From Ochotona princeps (taxonomy: Eukaryota), in assembly GCF_030435755.1 (NCBI RefSeq), contig NC_080855.1:24658445-24722444 (forward strand): DNA of 64,000 nt, read 5' to 3'. A program made the translations under genes and the position numbers. Position 1 is the stretch's first letter; each line of letters starts with the position of its first letter. This document shows positions 18,735-62,964 of the stretch, piece after piece. The notes under the pieces were generated by a model. That model was not told where the DNA came from, searched no databases, and saw only the letters and a program-made list of their open reading frames with translations.

Positions 18735-18923
18735 CTAGGAAGCAGGCGGTGATGGGGGAAGCGCGCCCTCCTGCTGGCGGGGCCCACTGGCCGCCATGCT
18801 AGTTGGGGGCTGGCCGTTGTTGCCCAGTCCCAGCAGACCGTAGGCTGTGTTGAAGAGGTTGATAGGAGTGGAGCCGTCGGTGATGAGCGTGGATTTCAGG
18901 CCCAGGGATTGGAGCAGTTTGAC
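18735..18923 (-). CDS. MVP: MVP terminal coding exon ([44 protein letters not shown], stop TAG 18735-18737)
   Basis: ORF track 18735..19154; acceptor ttccag|GTC; matches human MVP ..[32 protein letters not shown].. Confidence 0.8.
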
Positions 18924-19190
18924 CTGGAAGAAGGGAGTGGGGTGCAGGGAGGCAGATGAGAAACTGCAGCCACAGTGGCTGGCTACTCTGCTCCTGTCTG
19001 CCAGCACCACATCAGGGATGGCCTCTTTGTACCAAAAGAGCTGCACTGCTGCCGCCCCTTTCATCTTACAGCCCTGCCTGGTTTTCTTGGCCTGTTGGTT
19101 TCTTGTCTCTCCTAAGAGCTGCAGCAGGACACCGTTCCCCAGCTTCACCCCCACCAGATGTTTCTGATGGTGTGTTTGCCTTCCTGATCA

Positions 19191-19439
<249 letters not shown>

Positions 19440-19715
19440 TTAGGTCATGTGGCCTCTGGGAGCTGTCCAGCACGTCACCCTGGCCAGCAGGCTAGGGGTG
19501 TATGTGTGTCAGTGTGTGTGGGGGTGGGGTGGGGAGGGAAACTGAGGCAGCCAGCTTGCAGACAGTTGGTGTTGCATCCGGGCTATGCCACCGCTTAGCC
19601 TGTGTGAGTGTCTGAGCTTACAGCCTGACATCAGGGCATCTGGTGTCCCCCTCCAGCGATGCAGCCACCCCAGACCCCAAGGCCGTGTCCCGCCCCCCCT
19701 TGCCCCGCCACTTGC

Positions 19716-19842
19716 CGTCTCAATGGCCAAGGCCTGTGCCTTCAGCTTGGCCTGCAGCACGGAGCCTTCGCCCTCGATGCGTGCTGCCTCGGCGCGGGAC
19801 TCAGCCTCTGCCTTGGCAGTGCCAGTACTCTCCACTGCCATG
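19716..19842 (-). CDS. MVP: MVP exon ([42 protein letters not shown]), followed by a GC donor
   Basis: ORF track 19509..19982; acceptor ccacag|C; exon ends ..GAGACG|GCAAGT, so the intron is of the GC-AG class. Confidence 0.75.
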
Positions 19843-19916
19843 CTGTGGGAGCAGGAAGAGGCGGTCAACGCTGCGAGGAAGCCCTCCCCTGTGGCCTTGG
19901 GGCCTGCTGCCACAGC

Positions 19917-19940
19917 GCGCGCACACACACACACACAGAT
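19917..19940. repeat. (CA)n microsatellite in an MVP intron
   Basis: cacacacacacacaca run. Confidence 0.8.
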
Positions 19941-20028
19941 GAACACATATTCAGATACACAACTACACCGACACATACACAAGCCCCCCGCTGCCCGCGA
20001 CCCCTCGCGCCCCGTGCTCCCTGTTCAC

Positions 20029-20145
20029 CTCAGGGCTTCCAGCTCTAGCAGCTCCTTACGGGCCTTCTCAGCTTCCGACTGGTCCAGGATCTTCTGTCTC
20101 TCCAGCCGGCCCCGGGCCTCCTGCTCTAGCCTTTGTGCCTCATGC
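20029..20145 (-). CDS. MVP: MVP exon ([38 protein letters not shown])
   Basis: acceptor ctgcag|G; donor CTGAG|gtgaac; frame continuous with flanking exons. Confidence 0.75.
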
Positions 20146-20805
20146 CTGCAGGAGGGGGCATAGAGACCAGGGCTTGGGCCAGGAGTACAGGGGCGCAGAG
20201 GCCAGGGCTAGGCTGGGCATGGGGCGTGGGCCCGCCAATCCTCTAAGATGGCTGGGGGTGGCACCCTGAGAAGGCCCTCAATGTGGGACTCAGGTCAGGA
20301 GAGAACAGGTAGTCCATGGTCAAGGCCACCGTGGTCACACTCATGACCTTCCTGGGTGAGTGGCACATCCAAGGCAGTAAGATGGGCAGGTGATGGGGTA
20401 AGGTGGGAGAAGAGGGCGCTCCAGCAGTTGTGGGAGAAAGGAAGAGCTCCCCAGGGAGGAGGAGGAGATGGCAGTAGAGGCTGGCAGGGGAAGGACATGC
20501 TGCAGGGGGGAGAGCTTGTGGGGGCAGAGGGAACCGGCAGTGCAGAGGCAAAGGCAAGATAGGCTGTGCATGTGGGAAGCAGGAGGGAGCTGGGGGCGGC
20601 GGCAGGGCTGCAAGGTGGGGGACAGGGGGACCAGGGACACAGCTGGGCTGTGGCATGAGCAGGGTGGGCGGCCCCTAGGATGCACACTCGCTAGTGCATG
20701 GCAGAGGCGAGGAGACCTGCAGGCCATGCAGGGCTGTGAGGGTGTGGTAGCACAGAGCGGGGCAGCATGGTTGCAGGGCAGCAGGATCCCCCGGCCCACA
20801 CTCAC

Positions 20806-21192
20806 TTGGCCGCGGCCTCCTGGGAGTTGGTGGTGATCTCGATGGCCAGCTGGACACTGCGCTGCAGGGCGTCCCGTGTCCTCTGGTCCACAGGCTCCAC
20901 CGACTGCACATCCACGCTGCTGACCACCAGCCCATTCTGGGGAAAGACAGCCCGGTCCCGGGGCCTGGGCAGGGCTATGCCATCCGGGCCCTTGGCTTCG
21001 TTTGTCTCGAAGCCGAAGACGGCGGTGCGGATGATGCGTGCCGAGTTCTTGTGGAAGTCATCGAAGGTGACGGAAGCCACGGCGCCCCGCACCCGGGACG
21101 CGATGGCTTTGCAGGCATCCCCCACGAAGTCGGGCACAGAGAAGAGTTTGGCCATCTCCTGGGGGTCCTTCCGGTCGCTCAGCTCGAAGTGC
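20806..21192 (-). CDS. MVP: MVP exon ([77 protein letters not shown])
   Basis: ORF track 20802..21215; acceptor ctcccag|G; donor GCCAA|gtgagt. Confidence 0.8.
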
Positions 21193-21349
21193 CTGGGAGC
21201 AGAGGGGCCCAGCATGACTGTTTTCCTATGGTTACTACATTCCTGGGGCCAGCATCATGTAGCCTGGCCAGTTATGGCCAGTTATCTATGACCCCTCCTA
21301 CAGACATAACCACCACTGCGGGGGCACTGACATCTCCTATGGGAATGCC

Positions 21350-21550
21350 CCATTGAGTCCTGGCTGCTCCACTTCCCATCCAGCTTCCTGCTAAGGCACC
21401 TGCATGGTCCAAGTGTTCAGGCCCCTGCCACCCCTACATCGAGACCTGGATGGAGTTCCAGGCTCCTGGCTTTGGCCTGGCCCAGCCATGGCTGGAGTGG
21501 TCATTTGGAGACTCAGTCAGCAAATGGAAGACCTCTCTCTGCCTTAAGGC
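21350..21550 (+). repeat. C-repeat SINE fragment, plus orientation
   Basis: ..ctccacttcccatccagcttcctgctaaggcacctg.. Confidence 0.6.
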
Positions 21551-21984
21551 AGGACTCACATGTCTATCCTGTGTGTGGGGGCAGGGACCCTTACAACAGG
21601 GGATGCTAATTTTGCTTACAGGGTCTGAGGAACATAACCCATGTTCCCATAAATCCTTTTGGCAACCCTAGGCAATGGGAGGATGAGCAGAGGGGACAAG
21701 AGACCAACAGTTAAGCTGGGATCTGTGGGGTGTTTTGGGGGGTGCCTGCCCTCCTGGTTCTCCCCTTGCTTCCCCTTGACTGTGGCCTTGAGTCAGATCC
21801 GCCAGCTTCAGCAGGTGCTGCTAAGATCTGCATGTGGGCAGCTGACAGGCCCCCGTGGTGCCCATGGGTCTGGGCACCTCGCCTTGGCCACAGCAAACGG
21901 GTATCCAGGAACCCAGCGGCCATGACTTCAGGAGGCCTCTAATCCTCGGGGCACCCCCCCCCCACCCCAAGCCCTATGCCTCAC

Positions 21985-22182
21985 CAGTTATAGGCCAGCT
22001 GCAGCTGCAGCCGGGCGTGGTCGGCCGTCTCGATGGTGATGACGTCGGTGAAGAAGTCAGGTCCCAGCAGCAGGCAGAGGGCGCGACGGGCATGTGGACG
22101 CTTGGGCCGGCCGGCCGACAGGGACAACACGGTGAATTGCTCCTCCGGACCCAGTGACACCAGCTCGGGCCCAAAGACCACG
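21985..22182 (-). CDS. MVP: MVP exon ([65 protein letters not shown])
   Basis: ORF track 21981..22181; acceptor ctgcag|C; donor AACTG|gtgagg. Confidence 0.8.
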
Positions 22183-22290
22183 CTGCAGGGGGTGGACGGG
22201 CAGTCAGCCAGTCATGCCCACTGGTTCCCCGCCTCCCCCGGACCCTGCTTGCTCGGCGGGGGGGTGGGGGGGAGGCAGACAGCTCCTCAC

Positions 22291-22535
22291 CGAGCTCGCT
22301 TCTCCCTGTAGTCATACACTTGTACCGCTGCATTGTGAGGCACGCGGTAGCTGACCACGCGGGTCTTGTTTCGGAGCCCTAGGGGCGGATGGGGCTTGGG
22401 AATGGCCGTCTGGCCCCTGTCGGCCAGAGGGTCCTGCCCCTTATTCAGCAGCTCCTCCACTCCGGGGGGCAGCTCCTTGTCCCACAGGATCTCGTCCTGG
22501 GTCAGCATGTAGGTGCTTCCAATCACAGCGCGAAC
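22291..22535 (-). CDS. MVP: MVP exon ([51 protein letters not shown])
   Basis: ORF track 22287..22526; acceptor tctcag|GTT; donor GCTCG|gtgagg. Confidence 0.8.
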
Positions 22536-23580
22536 CTGAGAAGAAGAAACCAGAGAGAGATGGCGCTAGTGAAGTGGGAGTCCAGGGAGACCTGGGCACG
22601 GGGCTTCAGGTAGAACTTCCTGTTTGCCACCTGCTGGCTCCGTGGTCTTGGGAAAGCTGTTTGAGCCCTGGGCTTCAGTTGCCTCATCTGTGAGATGGAC
22701 ACTTTAGTAGCTCGCTCAGGGGCCAGAGTGGGGCAGTGAGGAAGGGGCTGCTTGGGACGCCCTCATTTTGCGTTCAACAGCTGACACCAGTCCTGGCTAC
22801 TCCTCACTTCAGATCCAATTTCCGGCTAACGTGCCAGAGATGGCAGCAAGTGGTGACCTAAGTCCCTGAGTCCCCCATCACCCCTGTGGAAGACCCAGCT
22901 GGAGTTCCTAGTTGCTTGTTTTGGGTCGGCCCAGGCCTGGCTGCCGTCTCTCTCTCTCTCTCTCCAGTGCAATCTCAAGGGGCTAAGCAATGAATGTCAT
23001 TTGCATGAGGGGTTCAAAGAATAGCACTTGGCATCTAGTGAGTACATGATACCATTCTTTCTAGAACCTTCCTTCATGAGGCAGACACAATCCCAGGAAG
23101 TAAGTGGGACACACTCCCTGCTTGGCAGACCTTCTCATGTGTCCCCCCCAACCTAGCAATCCCACTCCAAGGTTAAACCCAGAAGAAACATTGGCCTGTG
23201 TCCAACAGGAGGTCCCATGAACAAATGCTTAGCCCAGACGCCCAGGAACATGGGAGGTCGGGTAAAACAGACCACAGTCACCCATCACACAGCTCCCTGG
23301 GCTCCATGGAGAGGAGGACGGATGCAGCCCAGGTCAGACCAAGGTCAGGACTCAGGCACCAGGGAAGGGGCCACAAAGGGGGACACACCTACAGGCCCAG
23401 GGTCAACTTCACCCAGCCCACCCTCTCTGTTGATTTGAGACCATGGGGACAGGATGGCCAGTGTTCCCTGCAATGCTCTCAGGCCCACCAGCCACCCACC
23501 CTGCTGCTACCATGGAGAGACGGTTGGTGTCCCCTCCCCCTGCTCCATCAGCATCAACCCCGCCCCTCCCCAACTGTTAC

Positions 23581-23862
23581 CTTCCCAGTTTTGACATCTT
23601 GCACGTAAATGCCCTCATTTTCGTCCAGGGGGATGGCTTGGCGCTCTTCTACCACTTCCACCTTGGCGGACGGCACATACTCCAGAGGCCCGCGGATAAG
23701 CCAGCGGTCCCCGGCCTGGCGGGAGATCCTGTCGGTGCCTTCACCCTCCTCCAGGGGCTGCAGGGCCCGCAGCAGCAGCCCCTGCTGCTCCGAAAGCACG
23801 TACACATCCTGAATGCCTCGCTCCAGCCTCTCCCCGGGCTGCAGGAAGAAGGACTTCTCGCC
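23581..23862 (-). CDS. MVP: MVP exon ([52 protein letters not shown])
   Basis: ORF track 23554..23943; acceptor caccag|GGC; donor AAG|gtgaca. Confidence 0.8.
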
Positions 23863-24119
23863 CTGGTGGGGAGACACAGGTGCAGTTAGAAGCAGGTGCC
23901 ATCTGGAGTTGCAAGGTGTCCCCTCTCCCCAGCTCCATGGCACTTCCCGGGCTGTCCCAGAAAGTAGCCCCCAGACCCAACCACACTAGAACCCCAAGGA
24001 GTCCCTCTGGACGACAGGGGTCTCTGCAGATCCACACAGGCTCTCACGGGGGTCCAACGTGAAGAGTTTGTACCTCGTGGGGACCCACGTCCTCAAACCC
24101 ACAGTGAGGCCCGAGCCTG

Positions 24120-24410
24120 CCAGTGGGGTGGACCTCTGGCACGCTGGTTAGGATGCTGCTCAGACTGCCTGCTCCACATGCCAGCTCCTCTGCCTCTGAA
24201 CCGGCTTCCAGCACAGACACCCCGGGAGGCAGCAGGGGACAGCTCAGGTCCTGGGGTCCCTGCCACTGGGTGAACCAGTTGGAGCTCCTGGCTCCTGGCT
24301 GCAGCTTGGCCCTGCTCTGGCTGTCGTGAGCATTTGGGGAGTGAATAAACAGAAGATCTCTTTCCATCTGTCTCTGCTTTTCAAATAACACAAAAATAAG
24401 CATAATTGAA
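24120..24410 (+). repeat. C-repeat SINE, plus orientation
   Basis: SINE consensus blocks ending ..tctctgcttttcaaataacacaaaaataagc. Confidence 0.65.
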
Positions 24411-24849
24411 AAAAATTTAAATAGAAAAAGAAAGAAGAAAGAAAATATTGACCTATGTTCCTTTTCATTTTTCCCAGGTGCTGTATTCTTGGGATGGTGG
24501 AGTTTAGGCATTGGCAAATGCCAATCTTGGTGCCAAATCTGCTCCGGCCCATCTTGTGTGAATGCCCGCACGCCTGGGCCTGGGCTGTCCACAGTGGATC
24601 AATACCCGATGCCCAGCACTACAAAACAGTGTAGCATTTGCTGGGAAGAGGAGACTTCCTGCTGCCAAAAAATACATATTTTAAATATATACTTATTGAT
24701 TTGAAATGCAGAGTGCCGGAGAGTGGAATAGAGAGAGAGTGAGGGATTTTTCCATCTGATTTTCTATCTCTGTGTGTGTATGTGATGGAGAGAGAGATTG
24801 TCCACCTGTTGGCTCACTCCCCAGTTGCAGTTGGCATTGAGCTAGGCTG

Positions 24850-25130
24850 AAGCCATGGTTTGCCATACATGCATCCTGTGTTAGAGCGCTGGGTTGAGCT
24901 CCAGCTGCTCTATTTCTCATCCAGCTCCCTGTTAATGCCTCGGGAAGGCAGCAGAAACGATCCAAGTGCTTGGGCCCCGCCGCCCACGCGGGAGATCTGG
25001 AAGAACATTTTGGCTCCTGGCTTCGGCCTGGCCCAGCCCTGGCTGTTGCTGCCATTTCAGGAGTGAACCAATAGATGGAAGGTCTCTCTTCCCTCTTTCT
25101 CCCTCTGTCACTTTGCCTTTCAAGTAGAGA
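24850..25130 (+). repeat. C-repeat SINE, plus orientation
   Basis: ..ctccagctgctctatttctcatccagctccctgttaatgcc.. Confidence 0.65.
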
Positions 25131-25384
25131 AGATACATCTTCAAAAAGAAAATCAGAGAAGATGTCAAGAACTCCATGCAGGTTTCTCTGTCTTTCAAGT
25201 TGATTAAAATGAGCATTTTTTTTAAAGTCCTAAGAATTAAAAATAATGACAGGGACACAGCTCTTGTTCACACATGGTCTATGCTGCTTTTTTGAGACGG
25301 TGGTGGAGTTGAGCAATTTCAGCAGAGACCATATGGCTCACAAAGCCCAAAATAGCTGCTATCCAGCCCTCCACAGAAAGGGCT

Positions 25385-25830
25385 TGCTGGGGCGGGCGCT
25401 GTGGTACAGTGGATTAAGCCGTAGCCTGGGACGCTGGCGTCTCATAGGAGCACCAATTCAAATCGCAACTGCCCTATTTGTGCTGCAGCTCCCTGCTAAT
25501 ACAGCAGGGAGGGCAGTGGATGCTGGTCCAGGTGCTGGCCACCTGCGAGGGAGAGCTGGATGGAATTCTAGGCTCCTGCCTGCAGCACGGCTGAGCCTGA
25601 GCATCTCTGCCATTTCAGGAGTGAACTTCAGATAGAATATGGTCATCTCTCTATTTCCATCTCTTCCGAAGGGCTTGGCAGCGTGGCCTAATGGCTAAGG
25701 TCCTCGCCTTGATCCCATATGGCTGCTGGTTCTAATCCCGGCAGCTCCACTTCCTCTCTGTCTCTCCTCCTCTCAGTATATCTGACTTTGTAATAAAAAT
25801 AAAATAAATCTTTAAAAAAAATATATATAT
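25385..25830 (+). repeat. two C-repeat SINE copies, plus orientation (second internally deleted)
   Basis: ggcgggcgctgtggtacagtggattaagcc.. and gcagcgtggcctaatggctaaggtcctcgcc..ctgactttgtaataaaaataaaataaatctt. Confidence 0.65.
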
Positions 25831-25839
25831 ATATATATA

Positions 25840-26110
25840 GGAAAGGCAGATCAGATTTATGGAGAGAAGGACAGACAGAAAGATCCTCCATTTGTTGGTT
25901 CACTTCCCAAATGGCCTCAACAACCAGAGTTGAGCCAATCTGAAGCCAGGAGCTTCTTCTAGGTTCCCCACGCGGGTGCAGGGTCCCAAGGCTTTGGGCT
26001 ATCCTTGACTGCTTTCCCAGGTTACAAACAGGGAGCTGGATGGAAGCAAAGCAGCCGGCCCTTGAACAAGCACTCATTTGAGATTCTGGCACTTGCATGG
26101 TAAGGATTTA
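25840..26110 (-). repeat. C-repeat SINE, minus orientation
   Basis: ..gttggttcacttcccaaatggcctcaacaaccagagttgagccaatctgaagccaggagc.. Confidence 0.65.
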
Positions 26111-26989
26111 GCCATTGAGTCATTGCACTGGGCTCTATTTCTGCCTTTCAAATAAATAATAAATAAAACTTCACACATAGACACATAAAGGTTTGCTACC
26201 CTTGGTATGTGGCCACATATAGCTCAGAGAGACAAGGAAGCAGTAGTAAGGGTTAACCAATAGATGTGCTTTAGGAAGGAGGACACAGGTAACAGAACAC
26301 AGAAGGACGTTTTCAGAACCATGAAGGAAAGTTCCAGAGTCTTCATGCTTGCAGTGGGTCAGGTGGCAACATCTGAGGGTACTTCCGAATGGCCATTAAA
26401 ATGGAACTAGAAGATAAGCTTACTCCTGGTCACATGTTTTTGAAACTCAAGCACAGCAGAGGTCTTCAAGAGGCTTGCAAAATGCACAAATTATGAAATA
26501 ACTCTGTGTGCATTTCAAATAATTTTGCACCAAAATAAACTTATCTTGTTGTTTTAAGGGTTTGTTTATTACAAAAGCAGAGTGACACAGAAAGAAATAT
26601 CTTCTGGCAGCTGGCTTACTCCCCCGGTGCCTGAAACAGTCAGGGCACAGCCAGGCTGAAGCCAGGAGCCAGGAGCTCCATCTGGTTTTTCACATGGGTG
26701 CAGGGAATGAATCAGCAGATGGAAGATCTTTTTCTCTCTCTCCTTCTGTCCTGTAACTTTGCTTTTGAAACGAAAAGAAAATAAATCTTTAAAATAAAAA
26801 AAGAGAGAAATCCTTATCTATTTCTGTATCTACTCATTCATTTTATATGAAAGGCATGGAGAGAGAGACAGAGAGGACAAGGAAAGACCTCTCATCCTCT
26901 GGCTTATGTCCCTACCGTCCATGGCACTAGGAACAAGGAACTTCATCTGAGTCACCCCTGGGCCAATACCTGCTGCTTCCCAACCCAAG

Positions 26990-27080
26990 CATGAGTAGGG
27001 GGCTGCAGCAGGGTGGGGCTGCAGCAGGGTGGGGCTGCAGCAGGGGTGGGGCTGCAGCAGGGGTGGGGCTGCAGCAGAGG
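26990..27080. repeat. minisatellite, about 5 copies of a 17-18-nt unit (ggggctgcagcag(g)ggt)
   Basis: direct tandem repetition gggctgcagcagggtggggctgcagcagggtggggctgcagcaggggtggggctgcagcaggggtggggctgcagcag. Confidence 0.85.
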
Positions 27081-27310
27081 TGAAGGCAGACAGTGGTATG
27101 GGATGTGGGGAGTCCCAAACAGCATCCTAACTGCTTCATCCCTAGACTTGTCTGTTTCTTTCATCTGTGCATTTCTGGAAACCTCGTTGGGGGTAAATCA
27201 GCGGCTGGCAGGAATCTAGCAGAAGGGTGTTTTGAGCCTTCTCTATTTCCCATGCAAAAACACAGCAGGTGCTTCTAGAACGTTCCAGCGATGCAGAGAG
27301 CCATACTCAC

Positions 27311-27547
27311 CTTGACGACACGCTTCTGCCCTAGCTGATTCTTGCCGTCAGGGCCAACTGGGTCTAGAATGACACAGTAGTTTCGGGGGCCCAGAGTGGT
27401 GATGGGCACCACCCCTAGCACCTCCTCGTAGACGTCGGGCACGTGGGCTTCCGTGTCCTGCACTGTCACCAGCCACTCCTCCCCCGTGCGGCGGACCACG
27501 CCCCGCAGGTCTCGGAAGTTCTGCCGAGCCCGCAGATGCAGGGCTGT
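27311..27547 (-). CDS. MVP: MVP exon ([79 protein letters not shown])
   Basis: ORF track 27275..27751; acceptor ccacag|ACA; donor AAG|gtgagt. Confidence 0.8.
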
Positions 27548-27755
27548 CTGTGGGACAACAAGGGGCATGAGTGGCAGAGGGAGGGCCCCCGGCTCCTCCA
27601 AAGGCTGCTGGGGAACCCCCACCCCCGGGACACCAAAGGTTGCTGGGAGCCTAGTGACTAAATGCCCACCACCCCAGAAGTTTGGAGTTTGTGACCCTGG
27701 AAATGCAACGCACACAATCCGCCGCACCCTGACCCCGCAGCCTCGGCTCACAAAC

Positions 27756-27850
27756 CTTCTCAGTGAGGATCACTGCATTCACCAAGTCCAGGACCTCCTC
27801 GAACACCGCAGGGAGGTATGCACCCACCGTGCGCACCAGCCATTCTTCCC
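27756..27850 (-). CDS. MVP: MVP exon ([32 protein letters not shown])
   Basis: ORF track 27651..27836; acceptor cctag|GG; donor GAGAAG|gtttgt. Confidence 0.75.
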
Positions 27851-27999
27851 CTAGGCCGAGGGCAAAGGGGAAGGGTCAGAGGTCACTCTGCTGTCCCCTC
27901 TCACCAAGTCAACAGCAGGGGACCTGCAGGACTTTCTAAGCCAAGGGCTGACTTCAGGGCCCAGACAGCAGCGTTCACACTCATGCCTTTCTTGTTCTT

Positions 28000-28330
28000 C
28001 TTTATTTAAGGATTTATTTATTTCTATTTGAAAGGCGGATATACAGAGAGGAGGAGAGACAGAGAGGAAGATCTTCTGTGTAACGATTCATTCCACATGC
28101 GGCCTCAACAGCGGAGCTGAGGCAATCCAAAGCCAGGAGCCAGGAGCTTCTTCTGGGTCTCTCATGCGGGTGCAGGGTCCCAAGGCTTTGGGCTGTCCTC
28201 AACTGCTTTTCCAGGCCACAATCAGGGAGCTGGATGAGAAGCGGGGCTGCTGGGATTAGAACCAGCTCCCATATGGGATCCCGGGTGTGCAAGGCGAGGA
28301 CTTTAACCACTACGCTATTGTGCCAGGCCA
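28000..28330 (-). repeat. C-repeat SINE, minus orientation
   Basis: SINE consensus blocks, starts with tttatttatttctatttgaaaggcgg. Confidence 0.7.
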
Positions 28331-28474
28331 TTTTTGGATTAGCTCAGCTCAGCCATTGCAGCCACTTGGGGAGTAAATCAGCAGGCAGATCTTTCTCTGT
28401 GTCTCCTTCTCTCTGTAAATCTGCCCCCCCAATAAAAATAAATAAATGTTAAAAAAAAAAAAAAGAAAAAGAGT

Positions 28475-28790
28475 CCAGTGCAGTAGCCTAGTAGCTAAAG
28501 CTATTGTCTTGAACATGCCCAGGATCCCATATGGGCACCGGTTCTAATCCCAGCAGCCCTGCTTTCCATCCTGCTCCCTGCTTGTGGCCTGGAAAAGCAG
28601 TCAAAGACAGCCCAAAGCCTTGGGACCCTGTACCCGCATGAGAGACCCAGAAGAAGCTCCTGGTTCCTGGCTTTGGTTTGGCTCAGCTCTGGCTGTTAGG
28701 GTCATTTGGAGAGTAGACCAGCAGGTGGAAGCTCTTTCCGTCTTTCCTTCTCTCTGTAAATCTGCTTTTCTAATAAAAATAAATAAATCT
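28475..28790 (+). repeat. C-repeat SINE, plus orientation, followed by A24
   Basis: agtagcctagtagctaaagctattgtc..ctgtaaatctgcttttctaataaaaataaataaatct. Confidence 0.7.
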
Positions 28791-29099
28791 AAAAAAAAAA
28801 AAAAAAAAAAGGAAAGAAAAAGCCAGTCAAAGCAGTTCAGATCGCTGCTCTGCCAACACCCTGCAACACCTGCTCCAAGTTCCAAATACCAACTGTTTTC
28901 CTCTCGCTGGCACGGGCGGCAGAAGTTGCTTTGTGACAGGTGTAGACGCCCTTCAGTGTATGGCAACAGGTGCAAGCTACAGCCTCATCTTGCAGGGTCA
29001 CACACCCAGCATCAGGAATCTGAGTTCTGTCCTATCCTTTGAAACACATGAGCACTTGATGGTTGACACTGTGAAGCTTCTCCCTGTGGTACCAGTTTA

Positions 29100-29545
29100 C
29101 CCATGTGGATGCCAGATCAAGTCGCAGCTGCTCCACTTCCCATCCAGCTCCTGCTTGTGGCCTGGGAAAGCAGTAGAGCACAACCCAAAGCCTTGGGACC
29201 CTGCACCCGCATGGGAGACCCGAAAGAAACTCCTGGATTCAGATCAGCTCAGCTCCAGCCATTGCTCCCATTTAGGGAGTAGACAGTTTTCTCTGTCTTT
29301 TCTTCTTTCTGTAAATCTGCCTTTCCAATAAAAATAAATCTGAAGAAAATATTTTTATTGGAAAGGCAACACAGAAAGAGATCTTCCATTCCTTGCTTCA
29401 CTCCCCAAATGGCCACCAGGGCTGGAGCTAAGTCAACTCGAAGTCAGGAGTCTCCTGCTTTCCCAGGCCACAAGCAGGGAGCTGGATGAGAAGTGGAGCA
29501 GCTGGGACATGAACCAGCACACATATGGGATGCTGACGCTGGCAT
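29100..29545. repeat. SINE fragments, plus then minus (tail-to-tail)
   Basis: plus ..ctgtaaatctgcctttccaataaaaataaatct followed by minus tttattggaaaggcaacacagaaagagatcttccattcc.. Confidence 0.6.
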
Positions 29546-30194
29546 CACAGACCCCCAACATAAATATTGTTTTAAATAAAGAAGAAAATGGAACAGTACT
29601 CTTTTGAGGTTTTTGGATAAAGTGAACTATAAAACTTTTAATCTGAAAGGCAGAGAAGCAGAGGGAGAGCCAGCTGCATCCACCAAGTCCACCCTCCAAA
29701 CGCCTGAGATAGTTGGGGTTGTGCAAGGGTCAACGGCAGGAGCCAGGAACCCCTCCTGGTCTCCAACATGACTGGCAGGACTTCAAACACTGGAGCCATC
29801 ACCAGCACTTCCCAGGGTGCACATTAGCACAAGGCTGGAGTTGGATTCCAGGGCCAACACAGGGATTCTAACATGAGCATCGAGCCAGCTGGGTCAGCGC
29901 CCTGCCCTGGGTAGCGCATGGCATGGGACCCATGATGCCTTTGCTTGAGGCACCTGAACTGCTGTCCTGTCAGTCTGTAAGCAGAGGAGACACGGCCACT
30001 GCCTGCAGTGCCCAGTGGAGGCTGGGGACAGAGGCCAGGCCAGGCCAGGTGACAGGAACACAGGGTCAGCATGAGAGCGGAGCCAGCATCAGGTGAGGAG
30101 TGGGGAAAGGCCAGGGCAGCTCTGGCCAGCTTTACCCAGCTCCTCCCCATTCTTCTCCCACAGTGGAGCTCTCTTGGGCCCCTTGGCAACCCAC

Positions 30195-30326
30195 CTGTCA
30201 CCCTCTCCTTGCCATCCCGGTCCAAGCACTCCTTGCGGGCCCTCAGCCGCAGCGCCTGGTTCTGTCTGATGACTGTGGCTTGAATGATCTCCACAACCTC
30301 CACCTCTTTCTGGGGGATGTACGTGC
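30195..30326 (-). CDS. MVP: MVP exon ([43 protein letters not shown])
   Basis: ORF track 29824..30540; acceptor ccccag|GC; donor ACAG|gtggcc. Confidence 0.75.
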
Positions 30327-30434
30327 CTGGGGGGAGGCAAGGCGAGGGAAGGCGAGAGGTCAGAGGGGCAGGCGTGAGAGCCACAGGGAAAGAACAGGAA
30401 GACCTTGACCGTGAACCATGTGGAAAGCACATAC

Positions 30435-30558
30435 CGGGCCCTTCAAACAGCCACTCATCTCCTGCCACCACCTTCTCTCCATCCTTGTTTTCGAAATCCA
30501 GCAGGGCCTTCAGATGCAGTGCCGTATTGGGCAGGACCACCTGCAGTGGGGTGATATC
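30435..30558 (-). CDS. MVP: MVP exon ([41 protein letters not shown])
   Basis: ORF track 29824..30540; acceptor tctag|GAT; donor CCCG|gtatgt. Confidence 0.75.
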
Positions 30559-31344
30559 CTAGAAGGAGAAGAACAGGGTTATGGGGTGCTCAGTGCATTA
30601 ACGCTACCCCCACTCTGTCCCAGCCAGCTCAACTTCATTATCAGGAAATCTGAGGCCATGATGCCCAGCTTCCTATGTCCCAGGAAATGGACAAGGTCGG
30701 GGAGGGGGTCTGGAAAATTGTGACGGAGCAGTCCAGGCCGAAGGATGTCCCTGCTGCCCGGCCAGGAGCACACCTGCCTCTGCAGAGGATGCTTCCGGGT
30801 GCTCAGAGCTAGAAATCCACCAGGAGGGAGGCCGGGTGGATTTCTTGGTGGGAGACACCTCCAGGAAGCTGGCTGTGAGAGTAGGTCGTGGCCTGGCCAC
30901 GGCTCTTCAGGAGGCAGCAAAGGTAGAAACTGCTATACATGGCAAGACTCAGCACATGACCTTGTTTTCAAAGTTGCCTTCCAGTCACAAAACTGCCCAC
31001 CTGCACTGGTCATCACATCTTCCATCAGCGAGGGATACCCAACAGAGAGTCGAAATCCCTGTTGAGATGCTTGTGGAATCAATGGGGTTGATGTTCTGAG
31101 ATGAGAGAGATGGAGAGATGGAGAGACGGAAAGAAGGAAGGAAGGAAGGCAGGGTCACAGTAAGGATTTGAGCTACACTCGTGGTGGGACAGGGAAGGCA
31201 GGCCAGAGGCAGCTGTCCCGCTCCAGGGTGGAGAGGGTCATTTAGGGGTCATCATTGTCCTCCTGGCTCACGGCAGGTTAAAGCAAGTCTGGGAGGGATG
31301 ACAAAGTCCTGGGGGCTTTGAGGGATGACAAAGCTCTTGCAACT

Positions 31345-31347
31345 ATA

Positions 31348-31382
<35 letters not shown>
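31345..31382. repeat. (CA)19 microsatellite
   Basis: cacacacacacacacacacacacacacacacacacacg. Confidence 0.9.
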
Positions 31383-31384
<2 letters not shown>

Positions 31385-32166
31385 TGTGCGCATGTGTGCG
31401 AAGGGAGATTCCAGTGGGTCTGAGACAAAGCCTGAATATGGATTTAAACAAACACCTTCATTTTAACAGCTTCAGACTTTGGGAAAATTGGCAAGCATAA
31501 TGCACAGAATTCCTAGACACTGCTTCAATTCCTTAGGATTGACTTTTTAGTAACGTTCCACTTCCTCTCTCCACACATCCACACTTCTTCCCCAGACTGT
31601 TTGCATCTAAGCAGACTTGAACTCTCCCCAGGTTATGCTCCTGCACCCCCAGGACCAAGAAGCACTTGCTAAGGGTCCATGCCATGACACAGTAGACTAA
31701 GCCACCACCTGTGACACCAACAAATGTACCCAAGTGACAGTCAAGTCTCACTTGGTCTTCTTCCTATCCAGCTTCCTGTTTATTTGCCTAGAGATTCAAC
31801 AGGAGATAGCCCAAGTACTTGGGCCCCTGACACCTACGTGGGCAATCTGAATGGAATTCTTTGCTCCTGGCTTTGGCCTGGTGCAGCCCTGGCTGTGGCA
31901 GCCACTTAGGTAGGTTGTTCAAATGGATGAGGAGCTTAACCTTGGCTCAGCCAGTTGAGGGCTATGCAGCTGCTGAGATGGACTCTTCGGTCTCAAGGGA
32001 GGGCGGGGTCATCAAGGGTCCATGAAGAAAAAGGGGCTAGCTAGGCTGGTGGGTGAAGGGACACTGAGGCAGCTCTGCTCTGGCGGCAGCCAACACCTGT
32101 CCTGTCCCAGCTCATGTAAGGTGACAGGTGGGTAGACTGGGGGCATGGGGAAACCATGCCAGGTAC

Positions 32167-32362
32167 CTTCTCTAGAACCTCCCCTGGATACAGGGGGAAG
32201 GGGTCCTGAGCCAGGCGGATCTCCAGGTCAGCATGGCGAAGCCGAACTTGCCCCGTGACATCCAGTAGCACTGAGCCCTGGGCGTCCCGACACACGGGGT
32301 TGGCCACCGTGCAGTAGTGACGTGGGGGGACTGTCACCATCCGAACCGGGGCAAACAGGACC
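32167..32362 (-). CDS. MVP: MVP exon ([65 protein letters not shown])
   Basis: ORF track 32041..32481; acceptor caacag|G; donor GAGAAG|gtacct. Confidence 0.8.
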
Positions 32363-32487
32363 CTGTTGGGGGAATGAAAAGGGATGTGAGGACCCTGCCT
32401 GTTGCCCGACCCACCTCCAGTGAAGGTAAGGACAATAACAGCCCCAGGGCCCCCACCCCCACATGGACAGTCAGTCCCCATGCCAAC

Positions 32488-32612
32488 CTCTCATTGTCCT
32501 GTCGGATGTAGGTCTTGGGTCCCACCTCCACACGAGACACATTGCTGTTCTGGTCCAGCACATGGATGTAGTGGTACGGAGGGATACGGATGATGGACTC
32601 TGTGGTTGCCAT
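32488..32612 (-). CDS. MVP: MVP first coding exon ([41 protein letters not shown]; ATG at 32612-32610)
   Basis: ORF track 32334..32804; matches human MVP N-terminus [42 protein letters not shown]; donor AGAG|gttggc; 14 coding exons total 2640 nt = 880 codons. Confidence 0.85.
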
Positions 32613-46125: not shown

Positions 46126-46591
46126 GGGGCCTGAAGGCTTCCTTCCCCAGATGTGGAATCTTCTAGAGCATTTCCAACAGAGACATGACTGGTGTTTAAA
46201 GAATCATTTGCTGGCTGAGACTGGAAGCAGGGAGACCGGCTCGTGTGCTGGCCCAGGCGGGATGGTGGATTGGAGGAAGATGTGTCAATGGGGCGGCAGC
46301 AGATGGGGTTGGTAATGTGGGGGAGGCAGAGCCAGCTCATGGCACCTGCTGCTGGCTCAAGGGTCTGGGTAACAGATCAGGAATGACTGCAAAGTCAGAC
46401 ACTAGGGGTGAGAACCAGATCAGAGAACAGGGCTGTGGTTCCGGCAAGTGAGGAAGGGGAGGGACCAGCAACAGAGCTATCTGTAAAGTGTTGTTGTGCC
46501 GTGGGTTGGGGGCCCGCCCCAGCAGCCACCTGCAGGGTGGCACCTGAAGCATCAAGCAAAGGCTTCTGGAAGGGAGCCGTGCTGTGTGTAC

Positions 46592-46674
46592 CTGGCGTGC
46601 GTCTCCGATCAATCAGGGCGTCCTTGGGTGTCATCGGTTCATCATCAAAGTCAAATTCCGTGGGCATGTGTGGT
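46592..46674 (-). CDS. PAGR1: PAGR1 exon 2 ([27 protein letters not shown])
   Basis: ORF track 46395..47138; acceptor tctgccag|A; donor CCAG|gtacac. Confidence 0.8.
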
Positions 46675-46840
46675 CTGGCAGAGGCAGAGAGAGTGTGTGA
46701 GTGGTGGTCCTCCTCCCAGCACCCGCAGACAGGCCTGCTCATCCCACCATCTGCCCCCACCTCCCACTTCCCACCCCTGTCCCTGGCATTGGGAAGCAGA
46801 GTCCAGGGATGGAGTGTGAAGGTGATGAGCCTGCCCTCAC

Positions 46841-47301
46841 TTTTCCTCCTCTTCCTCTTTAGCTTCCGGCTCTTCATCTGATCTCTCCTCTTCGCTCTGG
46901 GCCTCGGGAGTGGGTGGCCGACGGGGCAGGATCTCGGCTTGTAGCTCCACGGTGCCATGGGCAGCCAGCAGTTCATAGAGCCGCTGGATTTCAGAAGGCG
47001 GGGGCATCCAGGCCTGCCCTTCCGCTGGCATCTCCACCTCGTCGTCGCTGCAGGGCACGCACCAGTCCTCGGCTTCTCCCTCCGCTGCCTCCTCCCCAGC
47101 AGCGCTCCGGGCTTCTCCTGGCACCTCCTCCGCCCCACATCCCCCCCGTTCGGCCTCCTCCTGGCCTTCCTCCCCCTCGTCCTCAGCCTTGCTGGCGGAG
47201 GCAGAGGGGCCTCCGGTATCCTCCACGGCCAAAGCCTGGAGGCCGGAGGTCACTTCTCCTTCTTCCGACAGAGGTGCCGTCGTGGCGGCTGCCAGGGACA
47301 T
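46841..47301 (-). CDS. PAGR1: PAGR1 exon 1 CDS ([63 protein letters not shown]; ATG at 47301-47299)
   Basis: ORF track 46837..47301; acidic Glu-rich N-terminal region matches human PAGR1; donor GAAAA|gtgagg; three exons total 744 nt = 247 aa plus stop. Confidence 0.85.
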
Positions 47302-49318: not shown

Positions 49319-49688
49319 TTAGGGAGTAGTGCATAGGTCGGTTCAGGTTGGGAGAAGGCAGCCCAGCAGGTAAGAAGAGAGAGAGAGAGAGAAAGAGATA
49401 CAGTCATCCAGTCCCATGGGCACTGTGGGGACCGGGGAGGGGGAAGGTTGAAGCAGCAGGGCAAGAGGTCTCTCCCACCCATTGGAGAAGGGCACAGCCA
49501 GGTCCTGAAGGAGGTAAGCAAGGGCCCTGTCCCTGGGGAAGTGGGATCCCTGCAGAGAGGGGAAGGGACAGCATGGTTACTCGTGTGGTTTCGTGCCAGC
49601 GGTGGCCAACAGGACACTGAGAGCCAAGACAGGTGATAGGCCTCCCCCCTCCCGCCCCTGCCCAGGGCCAGGGTCCCGTGGGGCTCAC

Positions 49689-50507
49689 CATGACAGCATA
49701 AGCAAAGGCCACGATGTTGACAGGCCACATGGGGCAGAAACACGACAGGATGGCAAGGATGATGTAGTCTCGAGGTTTCTGGGTACCTTCGCCCCCCTCC
49801 ACCCCTGCCAGCTGGGAGCTAGGGTGGCGGCTCAGGCTACCTCGGGGAGATCCCGGGTGCCCACCATGAGCTCTTCCTTTTCGATCCTCCTCAACCAGCT
49901 GCTGCAACACCCGAGGGGGAGCCCCGTTGGCTGGGGGTGGGGAGTGAGGCTGGGGGGCTTGGCCCTCTTTCCCATTACCAGCCTCGAGTGGGACCACTAC
50001 CCCATTTTCTTGCCTTCCCCCCTCATTCTTGGTCAGGCTCTCAGGGGTGTGGTCTTGGCTCAGGGATTCTGGCTGGACAGCCGGCTTGAGGCTGGGCTGG
50101 GGCTCCTCCGGCTGGGGAGCAGGCTCTGCGGCTGGCTCAGGTGGGGTCGCCGGCTGCAGCTCGGAGCCCTGATCTGCAGCTGGGGCCTCCCTGCTCTCCT
50201 CTGCTGTGGAGGCTGCTTCTTGGCATGCTTCTTGGGGACTGGAGTTGGTCTTGGAGTTCCCTCCTGGGCTAACACTGAGGTCTGTGGCCTGGGCTGGGGT
50301 CTCAGAGGTTTCAGGAGCTGACCCAGCCTTTGGCTCTCCTGAGTCCACGGGGGCCACGTTGGGGTCTGGGTCTGCCTGTTGGGGGGCCTCGGGCTGGGGT
50401 GGAACCCCTGTTGGTGGGGCTTCAGAGGGGCCTGGCCCTTCTTGCTGGGTCTCAGGACTCCTTTCCGCCTCGTTTATCTCAGAGACCTCGGAGGTGCTGG
50501 CTGCCAT
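49689..50507 (-). CDS. PRRT2: PRRT2 exon 2 CDS ([58 protein letters not shown]; ATG at 50507-50505)
   Basis: ORF track 49404..50804; proline-rich N-terminal half then first TM helix; matches human PRRT2; donor ATG|gtgagc; acceptor for the exon near 50537. Confidence 0.85.
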
Positions 50508-50879
50508 CTTGACAGAGGGGCAAGGGGAGAGGGGTCCCTGCGGGCGGGCGGAGGATGGCCAGTAGAAAAGGAAGCAAATCCTGAAAGAGGAGACAGGCTT
50601 CGTGTGAGGAGGCAATGGGCGCGCTGAATGCTGCAGCCCCAAGAGGGCCAGGCTCCTGTCTCCCAGCCAGCCTCTTGCTACCTCTAGGGAGAGGGAGAAA
50701 AGTTGGGGCTTCCTTTCCTTGGGGTGGGATACCCCTGAGGAAGGAATGTCTTTCTCCGAGGCTTTGCGAGCCACCACCCCCCGGGGTGTGGGGGGGAGAA
50801 TCAACCCTTTACAAACAGGACTCTCCCCGGGGGTCGTCAGGCCAGTAGAGGCACTGGCACCCCCAAATCAGACAGCTGT

Positions 50880-54777: not shown

Positions 54778-55053
54778 CTGGGGAGGGGGGAGGGGCGTGG
54801 GGGGTGTCACAGGAGCGTTAAAGCTTCAGGGAGTGGGGAGCAGGGAGTAAGACTAAAGGCGTCAGCGCCTTGGGGCTGTGGGAGCTGTAGGGAATGGGAG
54901 TGAGATGATGAGGCCTTGGAGGAGGAATGAGACAATGGAGTGAAAAGGCAAAAAGAAGAGAGAGAAAAAGGGGGTCTGAGAGGCTGAACTGAGACAGCTA
55001 CCATGAGGATCAAAACCGATGAAAACCAGGACAGGAGGCGGCGGGCTTCCTAC

Positions 55054-55117
55054 CTCACATTTGAAGGGCCGTTCTGTGGAGTGCACTTGTCTGACGTGAC
55101 TGTTGAGGTGATCCGGC
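55054..55117 (-). CDS. MAZ: MAZ exon 3 (PDHLNSHVRQVHSTERPFKCE)
   Basis: ORF track 54862..56340 in frame; acceptor cccag|G; donor GAG|gtagga. Confidence 0.8.
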
Positions 55118-55474
55118 CTGGGGACACGTCGGGGAGCAGGATTAGGGCTCAGGGGGTGTGTGCGTCCCGGCCAGCGCACCCCTCCTCGCCTCCCAGGGCT
55201 TCCGGAGCCAGCGGGAGCAGGAAACCCCTCCCCTCGACCTCGGCTTCCTCCACCTCCTCCTCCTCCCACCCGAGGCTCTCCCTCCACCCATAGGCCCACC
55301 TCCTTCGCCAAGTACCACCCCCCGCTCCCTGCCAAGCGGAGCGCTCGCCTCCCTCCTCCCGGGGAGGGGCTCTCCTGCCCCGTCCCCAGCCGTGCCTGCC
55401 TGCCGGGTCCAGGCCAGCCGCCCCCGCCTCCCTCCCGCCCGCCCCCGGCCGCGGCGGCCGAGCCCCCTGCACAC

Positions 55475-56328
55475 CGGGAGAAGCTCTTGCCACAGTGGGA
55501 GCAGTTGTAGGGCTTGTGCACAGCGCCGTCATGTGAGCGCACGTGGTAGCTCATGCGGTCCTTGCGCTTGAAGCGCTGCTGGCACACCGGGCACTGGTAG
55601 GGCTTCTCGTCCGAGTGCGACAGCTTGTGTCGGTTCAGGTGGTAGACGTCGCGGAAGGCCTTGCCGCACATCTCGCACGCGTGGTTCTTCCGAATGCGCT
55701 TGCCCGAGGCCGTGGTGGTCACCACGCCGCCGGCGGCCACCGCGGCCGCCCCGCCGCCGGCCCCCGCTTCGCCCCCTCCCCCGCCGGCTCCGCTCAGCTG
55801 GGGCACGCTCAGGAGGCTCAGGGGCACCATGGTGGGCATCTTCATGGCCCCAGAGGAGACGCGGCCAGCCTTGGCCCCTGTGTGGATGGCCTCGTGCCTC
55901 CGGAGGTTGTAGCCGTTCTTGAACTCCTTGGCGCACAGAGCGCAAATGTAGGGCCCCTTGCTCTTTGTCTTCTTCTCCAAGGCGGACGCGACCGGGGCCA
56001 CGGCGACCGTCGAGGTCGGGGCGACGACGGCGGTGGCCGCGGCGGCGGCGGCGATGGTGGCGGCGGCGGCGGGGGGCGCGGCCTCGGCGGCGGGCGCCGA
56101 CACGGGCGGGGGCGGCGGCGGGGGCGCCGGGGGCTGCTTCAGGGCCGCTGTGTCCACAGTGGACGCGGCGGCCGGGGCCGGGGGCGCCGTCACCACGGCG
56201 GCAGCGGCGGCGGCGGCGGCCGCGGCGGCGGCGGCGGACTCTTGAGCGGCGGCGAGAACCGGGAGCAAGTCCACCTGGAGGGGCTCGGCCGCCGGGGCCT
56301 GGGGCGTGGGGGGGGGCGCCGGCGCGGC
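55475..56328 (-). CDS. MAZ: MAZ exon 2 (AAPAPPPTPQAPAAEPLQVDLLPVLAAAQES-A13-..zinc fingers 1-3..HCGKSFS)
   Basis: ORF track 54862..56340; acceptor ccgcag|GCC; donor CCCG|gtgtgc; matches human MAZ. Confidence 0.85.
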
Positions 56329-56416
56329 CTGCGGAGACAAGGCGCCGTGGTGGGCCGCGGCCGCGGGTCGGCGCCCTCCCGGCCCGGCCAGCCCGCCGCG
56401 GCCGGCCCCTACTCAC

Positions 56417-56608
56417 CTGGAATGGACTCTGGGCGCAGCCCTGGGAGGCAAAGAAGCGGGACTGGAGCTCAGCCCCGACCTGCAGGGGGTTCTGGGCGTG
56501 ACCCTGAGGTGGCGGGAAGGAGTTCATGAGGCCGCCCACCCCCCGGGAGTCCAGGCCCAGCACGGGGAAGGGGGGGGCCAGCAGCGTGCAAGGGAACACG
56601 GGGAACAT
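56417..56608 (-). CDS. MAZ: MAZ exon 1 CDS (MFPVFPCTLLAPPFPVLGLDSRGVGGLMNSFPPPQGHAQNPLQVGAELQSRFFASQGCAQSPFQ; ATG 56608-56606)
   Basis: ORF track 55529..56620; identical to the human MAZ N-terminus; donor CAG|gtgagt; five exons total 1437 nt = 478 aa plus stop. Confidence 0.85.
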
Positions 56609-57793
56609 GGCCTCGGCCACGGTGGGGGGCCCCTGGGGCTCAGCGGGGGCCGGGGGCGCGGGCCGCGCGGGGCCCGGGCTCGGGGCGCCGCCCCCGGCCG
56701 GCCGGGCTGGGCCGCGCCGAACGCATGGCCCGCGGGCCGCCCCGCCGCCCGCGCACCCCGGCCGGCGGGAGGGAGGGAGGGAGCGAAGGGAGGGCGCCTT
56801 GCGGGCCGCGGAGCGCGGCGACGGCGGCGGCGGCGGCGACGCCCCCTGGGTGGGGGCGGGAGGCCCCGCGGGGCCGGGGGCCGGGGCCGGGGGCGGGGGC
56901 CCGGGCGGCGGTGGCGGCGGCGGCGGCGGCGGTTGGAGCCTGGCGGGGCGGGGTGGGGGGAGCGAGGGAGCAGCCTCGGCCCCCGCCGCGCGCGCGCCCA
57001 GCCGGCGCCTCGGGGAGGGCGGGGGAGGGCGCGAGGGAGGGAGGGGGACAGCTGCGCGCGCACCGGGCGCGCGGAGGGGGGGTGGGACGGGAGGGCAGGG
57101 GGTGGGGGCGGGGGGAGGGGGTTGTTACCTGGAAGATGAAGCTGCTCCAGTTGCTGGGATCCATGGCGGAGGGAGGGAGGGAGGTGGCTCGCGCTCGCCC
57201 TGGGGCGGGAGGAGGAGGAGGCCGCGGCGGCGGCGGCGGCCGCGGGGGGAGGGGGCCGAGGAGGAGGCGCGCGGGGCGGGCGGGGGGAGGAGGAGGAGGA
57301 GGGTGGGGGGAGCGGAGCACTCTGCGCGCGGGGAGGGCGGGCGGGGGGCGCGGGGACACACAGGAGGCTGGAGCGGGCGCGAGCGCGAGCGCGCGCGGGG
57401 CCGGCGGGCGGGGGAGGGCCCGTGGCGGGAGGAGGGCCGAGGGAGCCGCCCAGCAGCCCGAGGCGCCCCGAGCGCGAGACCCCGGAGGCGACTGCTGATT
57501 GGCTGACGCTGGCGCAGGTGGTGGGCGCGCGGGAGACGGGGCGGCCTCGTTCTTCTTCCCCCCCCTCAAAGACTCCAGCCCCCCCCACAGCCCGCCAGCG
57601 GCCGTTATTCCGCGCGCACGCGCACAAGGTCGCCCTCGCCGAGGAGCGGGAGCGGAGGGGCGCGCGCGCGCCGGGGGCGGGGCGGGGCCAAGCTCCGAGC
57701 GCGCGCCCGGCTAACGGTCGCCGTCTCCGGCCTTCGCGTCAGCTTTTTGTTTCCTTTCGGCCGCCGTCTCTTCCCCTCCCCATTCCAGAGGTT

Positions 57794-57799
57794 TTATTT
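57794..57799 (-). terminator. KIF22: KIF22 polyadenylation signal (AATAAA on minus strand)
   Basis: plus-strand gttttatttac about 180 nt downstream of the KIF22 stop. Confidence 0.5.
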
Positions 57800-57979
57800 A
57801 CAATCCGGCGCTGGGTCGTGGTTCCCCAAAGATGGCGTCCCTCCGGGGTCGTTCGCGGAGCCCGTGGCCCGCCCACCCCAAAAATCAGGCCGAGGCACCA
57901 GCGTAACAACTGTATTTACACAACACAAGGATTTTCGCTGACACAAGGATAATAAAAATAGAACGGGAGGTGGCAGCAG

Positions 57980-58027
57980 TCAGCAGGGGCCGCAGCGCTG
58001 GCCGGCGGCGAGACCCAGGATGTTGGC
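57980..58027 (-). CDS. KIF22: KIF22 terminal coding exon (ANILGLAAGQRCGPC, stop TGA 57980-57982)
   Basis: ORF track 57980..58210; acceptor gttgcag|GCC; human KIF22 ends ANILGLAAGQRCGAS. Confidence 0.8.
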   Translation of the reverse strand, partial: ANILGLAAGQRCGPC

Positions 58028-62403: not shown

Positions 62404-62557
62404 CATGGAGCTGCAGACTCTCATTGGTAAAGGGCCGGTTGATCACTTCCTTGGACCTGGCAGCAAAGTTGAGCGCGGAGACCGTGTCCAGGTAGTACCG
62501 CCTCTCGGGGGCAATGTTGGCAATGAGAATACTGTGCGCCGAGCCACCCAGTGAGTC
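62404..62557 (-). CDS. KIF22: KIF22 exon, end of motor domain ([51 protein letters not shown])
   Basis: acceptor cctcag|GAC; donor CATG|gtgagt; matches the human KIF22 motor C-terminal region. Confidence 0.75.
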
Positions 62558-62639
62558 CTGAGGCAGAGCGGGCAGGTCAGAAGCCCAGTTTGCCTAGCTC
62601 TGACCACCCAGCAGACCTGGGAGCCCCTTTGGGCCTGAC

Positions 62640-62870
62640 CTGAAGTAAGCGAGTGAGCTTGCTGTCGCGGTAGGGCACCCGAGGGAGGCCCTGGTTCAGT
62701 GCATCGACCACCTTGCCCAGCACAAAGAGGGAAGTGTTGATGGCGCCACTCTCTTTGAGCCGCAGGCCCCGGTTGCCCGTGCGCCGGTTGTCCTCTGAGC
62801 CAGCCAAGTCGATCAAGTAGAGTTTTCCTTCCCGCTGGCGAAACGGGGCCAGGCGTTCCCGCTGGTCCAC
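62640..62870 (-). CDS. KIF22: KIF22 motor domain exon ([77 protein letters not shown])
   Basis: ORF track 62577..62870; kinesin switch II DLAGSE and SLFVLG motifs; acceptor ccccag|GTG; donor CAG|gtcagg. Confidence 0.85.
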
Positions 62871-62964
62871 CTGGGGACAAGCATGAAGGCCTCAGGCTTA
62901 ACCCCAACTCTGACTCCGGCTCCGCAGAGCTTCCTGGGCCACCGCAACAGCCAGCAGACCTCAC

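Follow-up and report, generated by a model that had tools for sequence, protein, structure and literature searches.

The locus studied here raises the question of where an intron of the gene for the major vault protein (MVP) that begins with GC and ends with AG comes from, and of how it is spliced. The gene lies on the minus strand of the window, i.e., the whole stretch of 64,000 nucleotides that was analysed. With a probability of about 0.78, the intron is an ordinary, constitutively spliced U2-type GC-AG intron, resulting from a lineage-specific conversion of GT to GC in pika MVP.

The gene was located using a human MVP sequence, which served as a tblastn probe only and pointed to positions ~32612 to 18700 of the minus strand. 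Combination of this tblastn mapping with an enumeration of splice junctions yielded a coding region of 14 exons (18735..32612, stop included; Table 1). The 880-amino-acid product of this 14-exon model is an exact match to XP_004587190.2, the MVP isoform X2 of Ochotona princeps. This record carries no low-quality flag, and the RefSeq model already uses the 19716/19412 junction. All five vault Pfam domains (PF17794, PF01505, PF17796, PF17795 and PF11978) are found on homologues of the pika protein. In the protein search, mammalian MVPs shared 90-93% identity with it over 100% of the query; the identity of the pika protein to those of other mammals amounts to 89-92%, with 92% for orangutan MVP. 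The identification of the gene as MVP in a preliminary description of this DNA is supported by these domains, identities and the RefSeq match, and the gene is intact apart from its GC donor. The species had been taken for rabbit; since the gene product is identical to XP_004587190.2, it is the American pika, which is a lagomorph but not a rabbit. Twelve of the 13 coding introns are of the GT-AG type, and only coding intron 12 is GC-AG.

Table 1. Positions of the MVP coding exons, of the elements in and around coding intron 12, and of neighbouring open reading frames (ORFs) in the window.
Feature	Positions	Strand	Detail
MVP coding exon 1	32612-32488	(-)	
MVP coding exon 2	32362-32167	(-)	
MVP coding exon 3	30558-30435	(-)	
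MVP coding exon 4	30326-30195	(-)	
MVP coding exon 5	27850-27756	(-)	
MVP coding exon 6	27547-27311	(-)	
MVP coding exon 7	23862-23581	(-)	
MVP coding exon 8	22535-22291	(-)	
MVP coding exon 9	22182-21985	(-)	
MVP coding exon 10	21192-20806	(-)	
MVP coding exon 11	20145-20029	(-)	
MVP coding exon 12	19842-19716	(-)	encodes (S)MAVESTG...KAQALAIET; last codon ACG = Thr755
MVP coding exon 13	19412-19224	(-)	ends ...GPEMQ
MVP coding exon 14	18923-18735	(-)	
GC 5' splice site ACG|GCAAGT	19710..19718	(-)	positions -3 to +6; direct read and enumeration
Coding intron 12	19413..19715	(-)	303 nt (a multiple of three, yet with in-frame stops inside); phase 0; GC-AG; 64% G+C
G-run cluster	19646..19709	(-)	intron +7 to +70; 6 runs of at least 3 G in 64 nt; 58% G
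Putative branch-site region ccacatgacc	19443..19452	(-)	alignment of intron 3' ends
3' splice site cccag|GAG	19410..19432	(-)	weak, interrupted pyrimidine tract; 14/22 pyrimidines
ORF matching PAXIP1_C	46395-47138	(-)	Pfam match
ORF matching CD225	49404-50804	(-)	Pfam match
ORF matching C2H2 zinc fingers	54862-56340	(-)	Pfam match
ORF matching kinesin motor	62443-63297	(-)	Pfam match

Two other features of the gene model were observed. In the last coding exon (18735-18770, minus strand), the TAG stop codon of pika MVP lies 10 codons short of the end point in related proteins. The codons past this TAG still read APGSTHLLP, and the tail of the closest relative reads APGSTHILP. The early TAG looks like a recent nonsense change in a variable C-terminal tail, a part of MVP that differs among mammals. 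Coding intron 3 (30327-30434, minus strand) is 108 nt long, in frame and stop-free, and its retention would add 36 residues. The resulting 916-aa product is absent from a collection of 15 billion proteins (exact look-up). The contig index keeps only the longest product and has no entry for the pika isoform X2, which indicates that a longer isoform X1 exists.

A direct read of the minus strand across the donor gives ..GCCTTGGCCATTGAGACG|gcaagtggcgggg.., with the end of exon 12 reading ..GCC TTG GCC ATT GAG ACG|gcaagtggcggggcaaggggggg... The final base of the exon is the G of ACG at 19716, and the intron starts with G19715 and C19714 at +1 and +2. At its 3' end, the intron closes with ..ccccgctcccag at 19413 and exon 13 opens with GAGGCTGAGCTG at 19412; a longer read of this end gives ..ctatccccgctcccag at 19413, followed by GAG GCT GAG CTG from 19412. 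The GC-AG intron initially described at 19716/19412 is thus exact in both its donor string and its coordinates.

When all donor/acceptor pairs were enumerated, 19716/19412 was the sole one giving the conserved ..LAIETEAELQRV.. (..LAIET|EAELQRV..). The full enumeration also contained 37 in-frame, stop-free GT-AG pairs, every one of which deletes or inserts residues. When the native acceptor is kept, a single GT remains in frame, TCC|GTGCTG; it is located 45 nt inside the exon and would delete 15 conserved residues. Splicing from the GT that lies 4 nt past the GC (GCAA|GTGGCG) would put the next exon out of frame. The initial claim that no GT donor keeps the frame therefore stands in substance, except for this single exonic GT, which is implausible as a donor. 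A GC-AG intron is required in the gene model, and gene finders restricted to GT would break or frameshift pika MVP.

The donor matches seven of the nine positions of CAG|GTAAGT, with mismatches only at -2 (C) and +2. Relative to MAG|GURAGU, the G at -1, the A at +3, the A at +4, the G at +5 and the T at +6 match, and the A at -3 is allowed. The C at -2 is explained by the Thr codon ACG, which is fixed in seven of the eight mammals compared (ACA in the kangaroo rat). Two points of the preliminary description have to be corrected here. The donor was presented as a typical AG|GCAAGT, but its exonic side is ACG and not ..AG, and the strong complementarity to U1 attributed to it is contradicted by the computed duplex with the U1 5' end. 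This duplex reaches -4.3 kcal/mol, versus -9.1 kcal/mol for the ancestral ACG|GTGAGT and -7.1 kcal/mol for an ideal CAG|GCAAGT. The natural GC donors of human genes have a mean U1 duplex of -4.0 (Kralovicova 2011). The pika donor looks typical of the GC class rather than strong, the comparison of -4.3 with -4.0 being rough since the methods differ.

GCATCC is the donor that defines GC-AG introns of the U12 type (Sheth 2006, PMC1557818). The pika donor GCAAGT is not U12-like, as it contains neither GCATCC nor RTATCC, which assigns the intron to the GC-AG introns of the major spliceosome. With the mammalian U2-type GC-AG introns (PMC1557818), it shares the GC at +1/+2, the AG end, the G at -1 and the AAGT at +3 to +6. 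Those introns are near-perfect otherwise, whereas the pika donor stays at 7/9 as its exonic -2 position is a C. The proportion of ~1% of mammalian introns, given for the GC-AG class at the outset, agrees with the 0.865% in human and 0.817% in mouse (Sheth 2006). GC-AG introns tend to be short (PMC7242645), and pika intron 12 is also short. Set beside the GC-AG class, the pika acceptor is no stronger than those of its orthologues, with 14/22 pyrimidines versus 12-20.

Genomic loci from seven other mammals were retrieved via protein search, and their donors were compared at the matching codon. All seven carry the intron at the same codon boundary (phase 0, following ..AIET), and its first two bases are GT throughout. 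The donor reads GAGACG|gtgagtgg in the orangutan (Pongo), gtgagttg in the golden-mantled ground squirrel (Callospermophilus), gtgagagc in the chinchilla (Chinchilla), gtgagttg in the kangaroo rat (Dipodomys), gtgagtga in the Asian elephant (Elephas), gtgcgtgg in the water buffalo (Bubalus) and gtgagtag in the opossum (Monodelphis). Comparison of the orthologous donors, as proposed in the preliminary description, thus reveals no conservation of the GC: GT is found in every other mammal examined, the orangutan being the primate among them. Read-through ORFs were also collected by searching with the 157-aa pika ORF that runs from exon 12 into the intron. The 13 such ORFs from other mammals all read LAIET-V (GTN), and none reads LAIET-A. 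The read-through ORF P0264 reads LAIET-VSWG and carries the exon sequence STGNAKAEA, which we take to be mouse-like. No pika- or rabbit-like genomic fragment was found in searches with the C-terminal 171 aa and with the 157-aa exon-intron ORF. A scan of metagenome contigs with GGCCATTGAGACGGNNAGTGG returned three chance matches, all unrelated and none of them MVP.

Both ends of intron 12 align between pika and other eutherians, with the block ggccttgg in common at the 5' end, which identifies it as the same ancient intron in pika and eutherians. Among the eight orthologues, the pika copy has the smallest length and the highest G+C content (303 nt and 64%, versus 383-3748 nt and 39-56%). At this same codon boundary, the spliced transcript contigs L002-L004 (Logan runs SRR29544054, SRR29544044 and SRR29544039) have GAGACG immediately followed by GAGGCC. 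These are full-length spliced MVP transcripts. Among the species compared, their MVP is the closest to that of pika (91.7%), with a C-terminal tail resembling the pika tail, and they may originate from a leporid.

By parsimony, the GC donor of pika would be derived, with GTGAGT as the ancestral state. Relative to the latter, GCAAGT differs by transitions at two adjacent bases, +2 (T>C) and +3 (G>A). The conversion of GT to GC probably occurred on the pika (or lagomorph) lineage, either before or after the pika/rabbit split. In primates and rodents, GT>GC conversions outnumber reversals by 298 to 40 (Churbanov 2008, PMC2490688). As in these lineage-specific conversions (PMC2490688), the outgroups of pika have GT, including a marsupial, one lineage has GC, and the region is GC-rich. 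That study (PMC2490688) accepted only conversions common to two sister taxa, whereas the pika case comes from one genome. A compensation of the T>C change at +2 by the G>A change at +3 in U1 pairing was considered and rejected, as GCGAGT (-4.7 kcal/mol) and GCAAGT (-4.3 kcal/mol) are essentially equal.

According to Xiao et al., weak donors are reportedly buffered by downstream intronic G-runs. A cluster of such runs directly follows the pika donor (Table 1). Its number of G-runs is the top one among the 13 pika MVP introns (0-5 runs) and the eight orthologues (1-3 runs). Among all 64-nt segments of the MVP gene strand, 0.22% reach six G-runs and 0.02% reach 58% G. The cluster, which was noticed post hoc, is a plausible candidate for an intronic splicing enhancer of the hnRNP H/F type. 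These proteins bind G-runs downstream of the donor and enhance weak donors (PMC12062376), and the weak donor of TP53 intron 6 requires five G-runs in 85 nt (PMC12062376). As in TP53 exon 6 (PMC12062376), the pika donor is weak and directly followed by dense G-runs, the densest of the gene. Unlike in TP53 exon 6, the pika enhancer is only a candidate, and the G-richness may reflect the general GC enrichment of the intron. This enrichment may have produced the G-runs and the T>C change alike.

A weakening of the pika donor (GT>GC) with the simultaneous gain of a dense G-run enhancer directly downstream seems quite unlikely. If true, it would provide a natural, datable case of a weakened 5' splice site co-evolving with poly-G buffering, and full-length MVP output might hinge on the levels of hnRNP H/F in a high-altitude, cold-adapted pika. 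Should the G-runs prove compensatory, this locus would offer a small natural experiment in the buffering of weak donors.

Towards the 3' end of the intron, the motif (C)CACATGAYC lies ~30 nt from the acceptor; it is kept in the three rodents (ground squirrel, chinchilla, kangaroo rat) and is degenerate in the elephant, buffalo, orangutan and opossum. This is a probable branch-site region, proposed from its position and the yUnAy-like TGAC, with 19445, located 32 nt before the last intron base, as the candidate branch A. The acceptor CAG GAG (19410-19415, minus strand) is of the tandem NAGNAG type, and splicing to its second AG would remove one Glu. Degenerate (CA)n- and (TG)n-like microsatellites flank exon 12 on the minus strand, in intron 12 (19500-19535) and in intron 11 (19905-19985).

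Conversion of an ordinary intron could have proceeded as follows. An old intron at this codon boundary (after ..LAIET, phase 0), starting with GT in eutherians and opossum, would have changed from GTGAGT to GCAAGT in the pika lineage by adjacent transitions at +2 and +3. The mutational route may have passed via the strong donor GTAAGT or via the CpG-containing GCGAGT. In the latter case, the T>C change at +2 would create GCG, followed by a fast decay to GCA. The U1 snRNA would tolerate the single C:A mismatch at +2 when the G at -1 and positions +3 to +6 (AAGT) pair. The short GC-rich intron, the conserved branch-site region and the six G-runs just past the donor, with a presumed role as enhancer, are probable helpers. 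We infer that the intron is spliced efficiently and constitutively in pika and that the change had little or no effect on fitness. The use of the junction in pika is based on the RefSeq model and on conservation, the GC being a single-genome observation on a terminal branch.

A different fate of the intron is conceivable, in which the change from GT to GC was favoured by selection, or recruited, as a regulatory switch, making the removal of the intron conditional and thereby tuning the MVP output of pika. Such a switch would consist of the weakened donor, the weak pyrimidine tract, the tandem CAG|GAG and the G-run enhancer, and retention of the intron or use of the +4 GT would lead to a premature stop. 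Alternatively spliced introns contain a disproportionate share of GC-AG introns (Kralovicova 2011; Churbanov 2008), and GC donors occur in ~1 in 20 alternatively spliced introns versus 1 in 200 constitutive ones (Kralovicova 2011), which speaks in favour of a switch. The GT located 4 nt downstream also fits, as 4 nt is the commonest spacing of alternative GC/GT donor pairs (Kralovicova 2011), and so do the U1 duplex, roughly halved in comparison with the ancestor, and the NAGNAG acceptor. At least two pika MVP isoforms are present in RefSeq, X2 being the match, but nothing ties isoform X1 to the 19716/19412 junction. Moreover, seven guessed isoforms are absent from the 15-billion-protein collection by exact look-up, which reflects annotation and not RNA. 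Three of them are specific to this junction (a donor at +12 nt, the NAGNAG product minus Glu, and retention of intron 12), and the four others comprise the retention of intron 3 and three alternative donors elsewhere. The junction falls in a conserved helical segment (residues 755/756), which every alternative truncates or disrupts, and most GC-AG introns are simply spliced. The closest parallels are intron 10 of C. elegans let-2 and human ING4 (PMC2490688, PMC7242645), in which a GC donor also has a nearby GT. Alternative isoforms are documented for these two, whereas none was found in pika and every alternative destroys the reading frame. A regulatory switch is therefore considered unlikely, and the hint at regulated splicing in the preliminary description, with all three junction-specific products missing from the protein collection, finds no support.

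The GC itself could be questioned if the C at +2 stemmed from a mistake in sequencing or assembly, or from a rare or heterozygous allele of the sequenced animal, in which case the species-typical donor would be GTAAGT and no GC-AG intron would be fixed. The observation comes from a single genome and a terminal branch, and such sites were excluded by Churbanov et al. for reasons of error and polymorphism. In addition, the searches yielded no independent pika or lagomorph sequence. No protein in the collection is identical or nearly identical to the read-through ORF of the window, and the contig index lacks the pika isoform X2. An error or rare allele is nevertheless very unlikely, as two adjacent bases differ from the ancestral GTGAGT and not one. 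The ~298 GT>GC conversions among ~123,000 donors on internal branches (Churbanov) correspond to a few per thousand, a rate that we estimate ourselves to be well above the per-base error of modern assemblies. The RefSeq model passes through the junction unflagged, and the donor site is free of Ns and of low-complexity problems. A decaying MVP gene, with the non-canonical donor as one of its lesions, is hardly credible. The donor and the TAG 10 codons before the end point of related proteins could be read in this way, but the 880-codon frame is intact over its 14 exons, and all 12 remaining introns have canonical splice sites. The protein retains 89-92% identity to those of other mammals, all vault domains are found in its homologues, and the C-terminal tail is variable among mammals anyway.

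The GC-AG intron of pika MVP belongs to a textbook class, is one of hundreds documented and is already implicit in public annotation. It has no bearing on the open questions about vaults or splicing and is of little importance beyond annotation. It does provide a further clean case of lineage-specific GT>GC conversion for which the ancestral state is known. In the literature, no paper was found linking ‘major vault protein’ with ‘GC-AG’.

The remainder of the window was searched as well. No RNA families of Rfam were detected anywhere in its 64,000 nt. Upstream of MVP, four ORFs were assigned by family match (Table 1), and these are presumably PAGR1, PRRT2, MAZ and KIF22. The families of the pika ORFs fit the order of human 16p11.2, which we take to be KIF22-MAZ-PRRT2-PAGR1-MVP. 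A 2-kb block at 56001-58000 has 79% G+C and a strong positive GC skew. It is probably a CpG island at the 5' end of the MAZ-like zinc-finger gene.
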